Assembly (NCBI RefSeq): GCF_003790525.1 | Contig: NZ_CP033635.1 | Direction: 5' to 3' (one strand) | Length of the DNA: 64,000 nucleotides | Source: Escherichia coli | GTDB taxonomy: Bacteria > Pseudomonadota > Gammaproteobacteria > Enterobacterales > Enterobacteriaceae | In this document: positions 29,284-48,720 of the stretch, one piece after another | Numbering within the stretch: position 1 is the stretch's first letter | Layout: each line of letters opens with the position of its first letter | Position numbers and translations under genes: made by a program | The notes under the pieces: model-generated | What the model saw: only the letters and a program-made list of their open reading frames with translations | Database searches by the model: none | Told to the model about the DNA's origin: nothing

Positions 29284-29493
29284 GATCGATCTCCTTGTTT
29301 GTTAAGCCTTCGATCTCTAAAGCATTATCGGACTGATATGCCATGTTGGGAAGAAGGTTTTGATCAGTTTAGGAAATCATCTCATTGTGTCAAAAACAGG
29401 TACATAAGCCTGTACAATTATCTGTTTCGTAACCGGATATTGGTTTCATTATGGAGCACCGCTTACCTGCCCTATTATGTTGTGCCGGCAACA

Positions 29494-31296
29494 TTAATGA
29501 GTGGGAAGAGCCAACTTATATTGTAAATGATTCCTAAAGTCTTCCCCATCTTGCGCCTGAGGTATATACCTCTGGATTGCTTTTTGGTCAGCCGCCGCAA
29601 AACAAGAAAGTAATAAGATCTCAATGCTTTTGTCATTAATATAAGCGAAGATCATTCTTGCAAATTCGTATATAAACGCCCGATCCTGAGCGCTTAATAG
29701 TTTAATACAATATTTATTTTTAAGAAAATAAAGTATTTCAAGGAAAGCATCCGCAGCAACCTTCACGTTATTACCGGCGGTCATATTATATATATCTCTT
29801 GCACAGATAGAGTACAGAGATAGTAAACAGCCATACAAATAATCATTTATTAATTCTTTTGTCCATTTTACTGGCAACCATGGTTTTATCTTGACACCAT
29901 GCATACTACAGTCATGAAAAAGACATTTACTGAAATTAACTCTTATCATATCAACATTGAAAAAATGGCAGTTAATAAATTTTAAAGAATGAGTATTTAC
30001 GTTGTTAATTTTAACAGATCTAAACGAAATATTTTTGAATACACTGTTTATTACATTGCTATTTGTGATTTTAACATCACCTAAACTGCCGTTTTCAAAA
30101 CAACATTTTTTCAATATGCTTTCATTCACAATAGTGTGTGATAAATAGAGATTATTTATGTTTTGCTTTATTAATGCCACGTCATTAAAATGACTATATT
30201 TAATAAAGCAACCATCATTGAGTAGTGTTTTAAGATTGACTAAATTAGTTGCATCTTCACGTACCATCATGGCAACTGGAACAGGCAACGACATAAGAAC
30301 TTCTTCATTCACCATCAAGTGAATCATGCATTGCGTTCCCTTTGTCATATCCACACTTACGCTACAAATATCGTTGTAATGCGAAGAGTGCATTTCAGGA
30401 AACAAATTAAACACGGTATCTTGAAAGGCACTAAATCGTGTTAATAAATCCTGATAATGAACAGGTTTTGTTTCAAAATTATCATCAGCAAATCCAAGTA
30501 CTATTGCATGCTCGATATTTAACGCAGTTTCAAATGATTCTTCTTCTGTAAAATCATTATTTAAAACCTCACCTGACGTATTTTCACTGTCATAAAAAGT
30601 ACTCATCAATGCGATATTGTTTGTTACAGCGTCTTTTGCGATATTCTCACTAATTGCATATCGCCTGCTATAATCATAAAAATGAATAAACGCATCCTTT
30701 ATAAAGGATATATATTGCTCTTTGTTAAAGTCAATACGACTGTATAATTTTTCAAAAATCACATTCGCAATCTTACTACCCATAGTATGCCTGTATAATA
30801 ATGGATGCGATTCAATCGTAAAATGCTTGTCTAATTGATGTTGTAATTTATTCTCATAGTCCAGTGGGAAAAGAAATTTTTGTCTTTCAAGTTTCCCATT
30901 CGATACATTACGTATTCCAATGGTAATTCTTTCATTACCCACTTTTATTTCAACTTCGTTATCTTCTGATTTGCCAAGATATTTTTTAACATCAATCTCG
31001 AAAGCATTACTAAAAAATATATTAAATTGATAATTCGCTGATGTAATATTTTCCGCTAGCAACTCATCATTTTTTATGAGATCACTATCAGCATTTATTG
31101 CTAATATCAGATGCAAGTAGATGGTGTCCCATGTAGACAACTCACCCTTACGACTGGAATTTAATATCGCGAAAAATTCCCTCAGTGAATCGAGGAAATT
31201 ATCACTTTGATTCAGTTGTGTGCCTGGAAATGATGATGCTTGATCAGATATATTGTTTATCATATTAAAAATCACCCAAGGGAAAAGATATTCCAC
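29494..31296 (-). CDS. Hypothetical 600-aa protein with C-terminal pentapeptide-repeat segment, in an AT-rich island; function unknown
   Basis: Long uninterrupted ORF in strongly AT-rich DNA inserted between ybjQ and ybjP; residues about 405-465 read as tandem pentapeptides with F/M at the central position (…FKNIS FRSVK INNVN THSLK FINCH FFNVD MIRVN FSKCL FHDCS MHGVK…). Confidence 0.75.
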   Translation of the reverse strand: MEYLFPWVIFNMINNISDQASSFPGTQLNQSDNFLDSLREFFAILNSSRKGELSTWDTIYLHLILAINADSDLIKNDELLAENITSANYQFNIFFSNAFEIDVKKYLGKSEDNEVEIKVGNERITIGIRNVSNGKLERQKFLFPLDYENKLQHQLDKHFTIESHPLLYRHTMGSKIANVIFEKLYSRIDFNKEQYISFIKDAFIHFYDYSRRYAISENIAKDAVTNNIALMSTFYDSENTSGEVLNNDFTEEESFETALNIEHAIVLGFADDNFETKPVHYQDLLTRFSAFQDTVFNLFPEMHSSHYNDICSVSVDMTKGTQCMIHLMVNEEVLMSLPVPVAMMVREDATNLVNLKTLLNDGCFIKYSHFNDVALIKQNINNLYLSHTIVNESILKKCCFENGSLGDVKITNSNVINSVFKNISFRSVKINNVNTHSLKFINCHFFNVDMIRVNFSKCLFHDCSMHGVKIKPWLPVKWTKELINDYLYGCLLSLYSICARDIYNMTAGNNVKVAADAFLEILYFLKNKYCIKLLSAQDRAFIYEFARMIFAYINDKSIEILLLSCFAAADQKAIQRYIPQAQDGEDFRNHLQYKLALPTH

Positions 31297-46323: not shown

Positions 46324-48009
46324 GTGAATATAAACGTCGCCGAATTGTTAAATGGGAATTACATTCTGTTATTATTTGTGGTCCTCGCGCTTGGGCTATG
46401 TCTCGGGAAATTACGACTTGGTTCGATCCAACTGGGTAATTCCATTGGCGTTTTAGTCGTATCGCTGTTATTAGGCCAACAACATTTCAGCATTAACACC
46501 GACGCGCTTAATCTTGGCTTTATGCTGTTTATTTTCTGCGTCGGGGTCGAAGCCGGACCGAACTTTTTTTCCATTTTTTTTCGCGATGGGAAAAATTACC
46601 TAATGTTAGCACTGGTGATGGTTGGCAGTGCGCTGGTCATCGCCTTAGGGTTAGGTAAGCTGTTTGGCTGGGATATTGGCCTGACGGCCGGTATGTTAGC
46701 AGGCTCTATGACGTCAACACCGGTTTTGGTCGGTGCTGGCGATACACTGCGTCATTCCGGCATGGAAAGCAGGCAGCTCTCACTGGCACTGGATAATCTG
46801 AGCCTCGGGTATGCCTTAACCTATTTAATCGGTCTGGTGAGTTTGATTGTTGGTGCGCGTTACTTGCCGAAATTGCAGCATCAGGACTTACAGACCAGCG
46901 CCCAGCAAATCGCCCGCGAACGTGGCCTGGACACAGATGCCAACCGTAAGGTTTATTTGCCGGTGATCCGCGCCTACCGCGTCGGCCCGGAGCTGGTGGC
47001 CTGGACCGACGGCAAAAATCTGCGTGAACTGGGTATTTATCGACAAACCGGCTGCTACATTGAACGTATTCGACGTAACGGGATTCTGGCAAATCCAGAC
47101 GGTGATGCCGTGCTACAAATGGGCGATGAAATAGCGTTGGTAGGCTATCCCGACGCCCACGCCCGACTCGATCCCAGTTTCCGTAATGGCAAAGAAGTTT
47201 TCGATCGTGACCTTCTCGACATGCGTATCGTCACTGAAGAAGTGGTCGTTAAAAACCATAACGCTGTAGGCAAACGTCTCGCACAACTGAAGTTGACCGA
47301 TCACGGTTGCTTCCTTAACCGCGTCATTCGTAGCCAGATTGAGATGCCGATTGATGACAACGTCGTGCTTAACAAAGGTGACGTTTTACAAGTCAGCGGC
47401 GATGCCCGTCGCGTAAAAACCATCGCCGATCGCATCGGCTTTATCTCGATTCACAGCCAGGTCACTGACTTGCTGGCATTCTGCGCCTTCTTTGTGATTG
47501 GGCTGATGATCGGGATGATCACCTTCCAGTTCAGCACATTCAGTTTCGGCATGGGGAACGCTGCCGGGTTGTTATTCGCCGGAATTATGCTGGGCTTTAT
47601 GCGTGCTAACCACCCGACCTTCGGTTACATTCCGCAAGGTGCATTAAGCATGGTGAAAGAGTTCGGCTTGATGGTGTTTATGGCAGGCGTTGGTCTGAGC
47701 GCCGGTAGCGGTATTAATAACGGCCTGGGCGCGATTGGCGGTCAAATGTTGATTGCCGGATTGATTGTCAGTCTGGTGCCAGTGGTTATCTGCTTCTTGT
47801 TCGGTGCTTATGTATTGCGAATGAACCGCGCACTGTTGTTCGGCGCAATGATGGGCGCACGCACCTGCGCGCCGGCAATGGAGATCATCAGTGATACAGC
47901 TCGCAGTAACATCCCGGCGCTGGGCTATGCGGGCACCTATGCAATCGCCAACGTCCTGCTGACGCTAGCAGGGACAATCATCGTCATGGTATGGCCAGGA
48001 TTAGGATAA
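46324..48009 (+). CDS. ybjL: AAE-family transporter YbjL (TrkA-C domains)
   Basis: 561-aa [31 protein letters not shown]…. Confidence 0.9.
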
Positions 48010-48049
48010 AACTGAAGTTGCCCTGAAAATGAAATTTTTTTGCACAACC

Positions 48050-48085
48050 GCAGAACTTTTCCGCAGGGCATCAGTCTTAATTAGT
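48050..48085 (+). promoter_or_regulatory. Sigma-E-type promoter of rybB
   Basis: GAACTT (-35-like) and GTCTTAA (-10-like) immediately upstream of the rybB 5' end; rybB is known to be sigma-E dependent; approximate. Confidence 0.4.
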
Positions 48086-48164
48086 GCCACTGCTTTTCTT
48101 TGATGTCCCCATTTTGTGGAGCCCATCAACCCCGCCATTTCGGTTCAAGGTTGGTGGGTTTTTT
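48086..48164 (+). ncRNA. rybB: sRNA RybB (sigma-E-dependent, Hfq-binding; represses OMP mRNAs)
   Basis: GCCACTGCTTTTCTTTGATGTCCCCATTTTGTGGAGCCCATCAACCCCGCCATTTCGGTTCAAGGTTGGTGGGTTTTTT matches remembered RybB, including terminator hairpin and U-tail; lies between ybjL and rcdA as in E. coli. Confidence 0.8.
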
Positions 48165-48183
48165 GTTGCCTGAAATTTATCTA

Positions 48184-48720
48184 CTACCCTGCAACCCTCT
48201 CAACCATCCTCAAAATCTCCTCGCGCGATAGCGGCTTACGGTCGGTGACAAAATGCAGCGTCATCCCCTCAATAAACGCATCAAGCGCGCGGGCGGTTCC
48301 GGGTTCAAACCATTGTTCGAGCGTTTGCTGACTGCGCTGCATCCAGTTTTGCATTACCGTTTTTAATAGCGGTTTTCGGCTAGCCAGCGCGTAGAGCTGG
48401 TACATCAGCTCCATGTTATCCGGCGTTGCAACCTGTGAGCTGTAGATCATATCGGTGATAGCCTGGCATGCGCCCGGAGCATCACTAACATCGCTAAAAA
48501 ATGCCTGATATTGCCGGGACATGATCTCAGTAAAACGGCTGAACGCCTCCAGCAACAACTCATCAATTCCTGAAAAATAGTAAGTCATCGATCCCAACGG
48601 TACCCCGGCAAGGGTAGCAATTTTGCGGTGCGTAACAGCATGTATTCCGTAAAGTTTCACCGCCTCCAGCGTGGCCTGGATAATTTTTTCTCGCCGTTGT
48701 GGATCGTTAGCGCGACGCAT
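48184..48720 (-). CDS. rcdA: TetR-family transcriptional regulator RcdA (YbjK)
   Basis: ORF 48184..48750; start [35 protein letters not shown] gives 178 aa. Confidence 0.88.

Follow-up and report, generated by a model that had tools for sequence, protein, structure and literature searches.

Misfolding of OMPs releases sigma-E, upon which the small RNA gene rybB is transcribed in both E. coli and Salmonella, and the RybB RNA, together with Hfq, reduces the amounts of many omp mRNAs, to which it base-pairs through a seed at its 5' end; the stress is thereby relieved, with feedback on sigma-E (PMC1804206, PMC6694218). The decay of omp mRNAs is accelerated by RybB (PMC1804206), the seed and its part in OMP repression have been described (PMC6694218), and the 3' end of the RNA comprises an Hfq-binding domain and the terminator (PMC6694218). 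The rybB promoters of Salmonella are strictly sigma-E dependent, with activity falling to near background in a delta-rpoE strain, and the gene there likewise lies between ybjL and ybjK/rcdA (PMC1804206). For E. coli, the RpoE dependence of rybB is credited to Johansen 2006 and Thompson 2007, as cited in PMC6694218. The upstream regions of rybB fit the sigma-E consensus near-perfectly across the gamma-proteobacteria, the consensus being quoted as GGAACTTTT for the -35 element and GTCAAA for the -10 element (PMC1804206).

Other systems are built on the same logic. A sigma-E promoter that drives a small Hfq-dependent repressor of abundant envelope proteins is common to RybB, to MicA and MicL, which are the remaining sigma-E-dependent Hfq sRNAs of E. 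coli, and to VrrA/MicV of V. cholerae. MicV, VrrA and RybB also have a CRCUGCUUUU seed in common (PMC6694218), whereas the genes, loci and RNA bodies of these other sRNAs differ from those of rybB. The gene is also described as a site of prophage integration. Felsduovirus prophages integrate within rybB, which constitutes the E. coli defence-island hotspot #29 (PMC10121019), and the island Kpn38RybB is located within rybB of Klebsiella pneumoniae (PMC4048246). The gene, its sigma-E promoter, the seed mechanism and the use of the locus by prophages are all published already.

The DNA analysed here, henceforth referred to as the window, is a stretch of 64,000 nucleotides of an E. coli genome (contig NZ_CP033635.1). 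A first-pass annotation of the window had noted a near-exact match to the 79-nt RybB RNA in the ybjL-rcdA intergenic region and had proposed a covariance-model scan and an alignment to the K-12 locus as checks. A cmscan search of the whole window with Rfam 15 returned two matches above the gathering score, and the match to RF00110 (RybB) at 48089..48167 (+) was decisive, with 104.1 bits and an E value of 2.5e-20. The match is full-length, covering model positions 1-79 of 79 without truncation, and its score is 2.6 times the curated gathering score of 40 bits. In the same scan the element scored as RybB and as none of MicA, MicL, VrrA or MicV.

The ends of the gene were taken from K-12 MG1655, in which rybB (b4417) is a curated 79-nt ncRNA on the minus strand at NC_000913.3 887979..888057, between rcdA and ybjL. 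Alignment of 201 nt placed the K-12 span at window positions 48086..48164 (+), with 78 of 79 nucleotides identical and a single difference, G48154. Agreement with K-12 was 100% across the promoter region, and not one difference was present in the 76 nt that separate the ybjL stop codon from the RNA 5' end. The intergenic placement was borne out by the neighbouring open reading frames, which match annotated genomes at 100% DNA identity: upstream, ybjL (46324..48009, +), an aspartate:alanine antiporter family gene identical in SMS-3-5 and others, and downstream, the transcriptional regulator gene rcdA (ybjK; 48184..48720, -), named from the SMS-3-5 annotation. The rybB gene therefore shares its strand with ybjL and converges on rcdA, which is also the arrangement in K-12. 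Locus, strand relations, 5' seed and terminator architecture are all shared with K-12 b4417 and with Salmonella RybB. Relative to K-12, the promoter is identical and the RNA agrees at 78 of 79 positions, whereas G48154 and a short box beyond the terminator differ. From these results, the element is almost certainly canonical E. coli rybB, encoding a sigma-E-transcribed, Hfq-binding, omp-repressing sRNA.

The locus is nearly universal in the species. A 501-nt query centred on the rybB locus matched 5422 of 5426 complete E. coli genomes and was 100% identical in several of them, including SMS-3-5 and an ST648 strain, and the 79-nt RybB sequence was found in 5418 of the 5426. The description of the element as conserved core regulatory content rather than novel was judged to be right, the gene being already known. 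The same annotation had held that an ORF-only annotation would miss the element; indeed, no feature lay under the 79-nt match in any of 30 sampled RefSeq/PGAP genomes.

The orientation of rybB had been said to agree with an inverted orientation of the whole ybj block, and compared with the dld-pbpG part of the window that inversion does exist. A junction at ~17.7-18.7 kb joins the bglX-dld-pbpG-yohCDF-mdtQ side to the lysO/ybjE (hcp-hcr-poxB-...-ybj) side; there the best-matching genome carries an IS110-family transposase, flanked by yohP and lysO (about window 17654..18679). A 24-kb query showed the arrangement of the window to be uncommon, with no more than 85 of the 5426 complete E. coli genomes sharing it. 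We take the dld/pbpG region to be far from the ybj block in K-12. A large inversion mediated by IS elements probably has one of its ends at this junction, and it is because the window crosses this lineage-specific, IS-associated junction that the ybj block appears inverted. The rearrangement is without bearing on rybB, whose neighbour relations are as in K-12.

Two further features of the window were recorded. A Peptidase-S11 RNA motif (RF03039; 72.8 bits, gathering score 34.8) was detected at 12971..13051 (-). It adjoins the upstream side of pbpG (12034..12975, -; NCBIfam NF008668, 599.6 bits), next to dld, and this motif too would be missed by an ORF track. In many E. coli genomes the match ends at window ~29338-29344, and ybjQ and ybjP of the best-matching genome enclose a truncated pentapeptide-repeat gene at window ~29340..31900 (L124 21340..23900). 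Since ybjQ and ybjP are adjacent in strain WCHEC050613, window ~29340..31900 is a variable insertion.

The promoter had been proposed from GAACTT and GTCTTAA motifs at sigma-E spacing, and both were located, at 48053-48058 and 48074-48080, identical to K-12 and with conserved boxes. The putative -35 element, GAACTTT (-33..-27), occupies 48053..48059 (+), and the putative -10 element, GTCTTA (-12..-7), occupies 48074..48079 (+). The gap from GAACTT (-33..-28) is 15 nt to GTCTTA and 16 nt to TCTTA, and the RNA 5' end, G 48086, lies 6 nt past the -10 hexamer. Extended to aGAACTTTT (48052-60), the upstream element carries one mismatch to the quoted -35 consensus, and GTCTTA carries two mismatches to GTCAAA. 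A search with the pattern GAACTT-N16-TCNNA gave exactly one match in the 64-kb window on both strands, compared with a mean of 0.39 matches in shuffled sequences, 31 of 100 of which contained at least one. Occurrence of the pattern alone is thus not rare; its position and strand, directly before the RNA, are what is informative. A sigma-70 promoter scan found no plus-strand promoter at the locus.

Conservation of the promoter was assessed in rybB loci from other species, of which at least 120 were fetched with an exact 21-mer of the seed region. A footprint was built from 114 Enterobacterales sequences among the matches listed, aligned without gaps and anchored on the RNA 5' end. Across these 114 sequences, each column from G-33 to T-27 (GAACTTT) was conserved at 98-100%, G-12, T-11, C-10 and A-7 at 100%, A-13 at 95%, T-4 at 99% and T-1 at 100%, while the spacer columns -25..-14 showed entropies of 1.2-1.95 bits. 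Because the alignment was ungapped and anchored on the 5' end, the spacing between the -35 and -10 elements is invariant. Invariant boxes, a fixed spacing and a free spacer together form the signature of a functional promoter. A tract of seven T residues at 48035..48041 (+; about -51..-45) is also conserved in the same 114 listed sequences, with 88-92% T (~90% overall) in columns -48..-45 and near-random flanks, and it is possibly a UP-like A/T promoter element. In published work, no robust binding of NsrR to the rybB promoter was observed in vitro (PMC12249550), and for this reason no extra operator is proposed at the locus.

The reading of these elements as a sigma-E promoter is supported by identity to K-12 and by the phylogenetic footprint, and transcription of rybB in this strain would be expected to depend on sigma-E, given the identical promoter sequence and the published work. 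An alternative is that the hairpin serves primarily as the terminator of ybjL and that the ~80-nt RNA arises by processing from the 3' UTR of the ybjL mRNA. Consistent with this, ybjL and rybB share a strand, and a terminator scan of the stretch that leads from the end of ybjL (stop codon at 48009) to the rybB hairpin found no terminator-like site. Such a product would not, however, account for the conserved sigma-E-type promoter 6 nt before the mature 5' end in the 114 listed sequences, and published promoter fusions demonstrate sigma-E-dependent transcription of the rybB region (PMC1804206). This explanation is accordingly very unlikely. Transcripts reading through from ybjL probably also end at the rybB terminator, as the two roles are not exclusive.

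With rybB thus read as an independently transcribed gene, the structure of its RNA was predicted from the window sequence. The first-pass annotation had included a terminator stem and U-tail, and the minimum free energy (MFE) fold contains both, as a 12-bp stem followed by U6GUU. The whole-RNA MFE is -24.6 kcal/mol, with a z-score of only -2.1; this modest value is expected because the 5' half of RybB is unstructured. The Rho-independent terminator hairpin spans 48120..48160 (+) and pairs 48120-48131 with 48149-48160 around a 17-nt loop that contains a small inner helix. The simple terminator scanner, which allows loops of 3-8 nt only, missed the rybB terminator because the 17-nt loop exceeds its limit. 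The terminator tail is the U-tract UUUUUUGUU (48159..48167, +), made up of U6 (48159-48164) and then GUU.

Evolutionary support for the fold was evaluated by MAFFT alignment of 66 distinct Enterobacterales sequences, drawn from the at least 120 loci, in which three candidate helices were pair-counted. In the terminator stem, 97.3% of cells were paired among the 66 distinct sequences in the matches listed, and changes on both sides were present at 6 of the 12 pairs (e.g. AU 40 / GC 24 and CG 40 / UA 22). The covariation score of the three helices together was reached by none of 500 shuffles, and sliding the partners by 1-3 columns reduced their pairing from 95% to 21-46%. Downstream of the stem, the T-run measured 6 nt in 108 of 113 sequences among the matches listed, and the TT located two and three bases past the T-run was 99-100% conserved among these matches. 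By analogy with published work on RybB and other sRNAs, the U-tract is likely to form part of the Hfq-binding 3' module.

The same alignment bears on the possibility that the element encodes a small protein, either from a 29-codon GTG open reading frame at 48084..48173 (+) or from small open reading frames on the opposite strand. Mechanically called reading frames do overlap the rybB region. The GTG of the 29-codon frame, however, lies upstream of the RNA 5' end; indels of 1, 2 and 3 nt in cross-genus alignment columns 26-27 and 54-56 break every reading frame; and the substitutions observed are compensating stem pairs, with three-base periodicity absent. The first 25 nt are also invariant, would-be third codon positions included. 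A coding function is vanishingly improbable on this evidence, and the element is treated below as a non-coding RNA.

The target-recognition seed GCCACUGCUUUUCUUUGAUGUCCCC occupies 48086..48110 (+) and is predicted to be single-stranded. Its conserved core GCCACUGCUUUUCUUU is positioned at the extreme 5' end of the RNA and is identical to K-12. All 25 seed columns were invariant in the 66 distinct sequences, although 21 of these columns were fixed by the exact 21-mer search pattern. A helix in the MFE fold that would hide the seed, pairing nt 2-5 with 31-34, was considered and rejected, as it displayed no covariation and was broken in 20 of 66 sequences; a free seed is the preferred view.

Every base of GCCACUGC, the 8 nt with which the RNA begins, is complementary to GCAGUGGC, a sequence that occurs both in the ompC 5' UTR and early in the ompA coding region. 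Duplexes were predicted between the first 25 nt of the window RybB and the K-12 ompC and ompA leaders. The predicted ompC duplex has an energy of -24.4 kcal/mol and a z-score of -3.0 and was matched by 1% of shuffled seeds. The predicted ompA duplex was not significant, as 6.7% of shuffled seeds did as well.

Taken with the published E. coli and Salmonella work, on which expression, Hfq binding and target repression in this strain would rest, these features are compatible with the following sequence of events. Under envelope stress, polymerase carrying sigma-E (RpoE) would recognise GAACTTT and GTCTTA and start transcription at G 48086, and the resulting RNA of ~79 nt would end at the intrinsic terminator formed by the stem (48120-48160) and the U-tract. 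The terminator hairpin, the U-tail and the upstream U-rich sequence would bind Hfq, and the free 5' end, beginning with GCCACUGCUUUUCUUU, would pair with many OMP mRNAs, such as ompC and ompA. This pairing would block OMP translation and hasten decay of the mRNAs, and the consequent fall in unfolded-OMP load would exert negative feedback on sigma-E.

The sole difference from K-12 within the RNA, a G for A at 48154 (+) identified in the K-12 alignment, falls in the 3' arm of the terminator stem. It is predicted to convert the U41-A69 pair into a U.G wobble with the predicted structure unchanged. The hairpin energy is calculated at -20.5 kcal/mol with G48154 compared with -21.1 kcal/mol for K-12, a loss of ~0.6 kcal/mol. 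The exact RybB allele of the window was present in 738 of 5420 E. coli records, while 4681 records differ from it at one position, as K-12 does. The allele has been found in more than one lineage, being carried by phylogroup-F-type strains and by an O103:H2 strain.

A single stem substitution relative to K-12 and most other genera, with a hairpin predicted to be less stable by 0.6 kcal/mol, might be taken as the mark of a weakened or decaying allele in which termination or Hfq binding is harmed. Against such a reading, U.G still pairs, the predicted fold is the same, and promoter and seed are both intact. The allele recurs in the 738 records, moreover, and U.G is present at this pair in other genera (4 of the 66 cross-genus sequences among the matches listed). 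Decay of the gene is considered extremely unlikely, and the window allele is regarded as a minor one that preserves the structure.

The 3' end of rybB in the window coincides with an unoccupied attachment (att) site of P2/Fels-2-type prophages. The 26-nt att core TGGGTTTTTTGTTGCCTGAAATTTAT lies at 48155..48180 and covers the U-tail of rybB together with the final 4 bases of its stem, and the rcdA stop codon is located 3 nt past it. The core was delimited as 26-27 nt, (A)TGGGTTTTTTGTTGCCTGAAATTTAT, by aligning the two junctions of one lysogen with the window, and these limits agree with the BLAST break points (window 48179-48180 and 48154-48155) and with phage records that include the flanks. 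In NZ_CP019213.3, attL and attR share ATGGGTTTTTTGTT..CT.AAA.TTAT with the window site. The window thus carries the same 26-nt core as the Felsduovirus attB at rybB described for hotspot #29 and Kpn38RybB, but in an empty state: no prophage was found at the rybB site of the window, where rybB runs straight into rcdA as in K-12.

Occupation of the site is common elsewhere. Approximately 1200 of 5426 complete E. coli genomes (~22%) are split at the rybB att site, and in one split genome a P2/186-type remnant between rybB and rcdA was found to carry integrase, CI, CII, Fil, tail genes and Ogr. A P2-like ogr gene lay directly downstream of rybB in 11 of 110 cross-genus loci among the matches listed. 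As a separate observation, the prophage at the rybB site of strain WCHEC050613 is a ~10-kb remnant that is interrupted by IS1 and has lost most structural genes (L003 26053..26750), which shows that prophages integrated here undergo decay without leaving the site.

Within the att core, directly past the U6 run, a 13-nt box, GTTGCCTGAAATT, was delineated at 48165..48177 (+) on the basis of its cross-genus conservation. In 102 prophage-free loci among the matches listed, the majority base accounted for 64-100% of each column of the box, and the mean entropy was 1.05 bits for the box versus 1.85 bits for positions 17-30. The mean entropy of the promoter spacer in these 102 listed loci, 1.5 bits, was likewise above that of the box. 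Conservation of the box spans the range of genera from Escherichia to Serratia and Yersinia, and the sequence beyond it is random. Agreement with the consensus is 13 of 13 positions for the window version, compared with 9 of 13 for the K-12 version, GTTATCTAAAACT, whose four differences from the window fall within 12 nt past the terminator tail. Consensus-like boxes are a minority in E. coli, being found in about one-sixth of 30 evenly spaced matches among those listed, O157:H7 included.

Four of the five differences between the window and K-12 in 200 nt lie within the att core, and the window version equals the phage-side (attL) version of a lysogen. The idea that the window carries a phage scar from a past integration and excision was examined and rejected: the window version is the consensus of 113 listed Enterobacterales sequences. 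Since the window box is the pan-enterobacterial consensus, it is the K-12 version that is derived. Conservation of the box was also considered as a lysogen artefact, and this was discarded because dropping the 11 of 110 listed loci flanked by ogr changed nothing. A further candidate, antiterminator pairing between the box and the terminator loop, was dismissed because differing loop sequences (GTTTTGG, ATTTAGG, GCTTAGG) accompany a constant box, with no covariation between them.

A sequence upstream of the rybB promoter, GTTGCCCTGAAAAT (48018-48031), resembles the post-terminator box. It was evaluated as one copy of a flanking direct repeat and not retained, as 117 listed loci yielded 8 loose matches, the good ones in Escherichia only, and a repeat search of the window did not report GTTGCCCTGAAAAT as a repeat. 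The resemblance was judged to be due to chance or to be lineage-specific.

As to why the box is conserved, a tentative suggestion, which we regard as rather doubtful, is that it is a functional part of the rybB locus that sets termination efficiency, the 3' end and Hfq-binding tail, or a longer isoform. As an alternative, the similarity of the box across genera may have been kept by repeated phage traffic and not by host function.

For the annotation of E. coli genomes, the result means that an envelope-stress regulator is missing from PGAP-style tables, whereas a covariance-model scan finds rybB immediately and so provides an annotation sanity check. If the box is indeed a functional part of the locus, P2/Fels-2-type phages would have taken it over on account of its conservation, and it would now make up the right half of the attachment core. 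K-12 would then be atypical, and the majority E. coli allele would have lost 4 of the 13 box positions.
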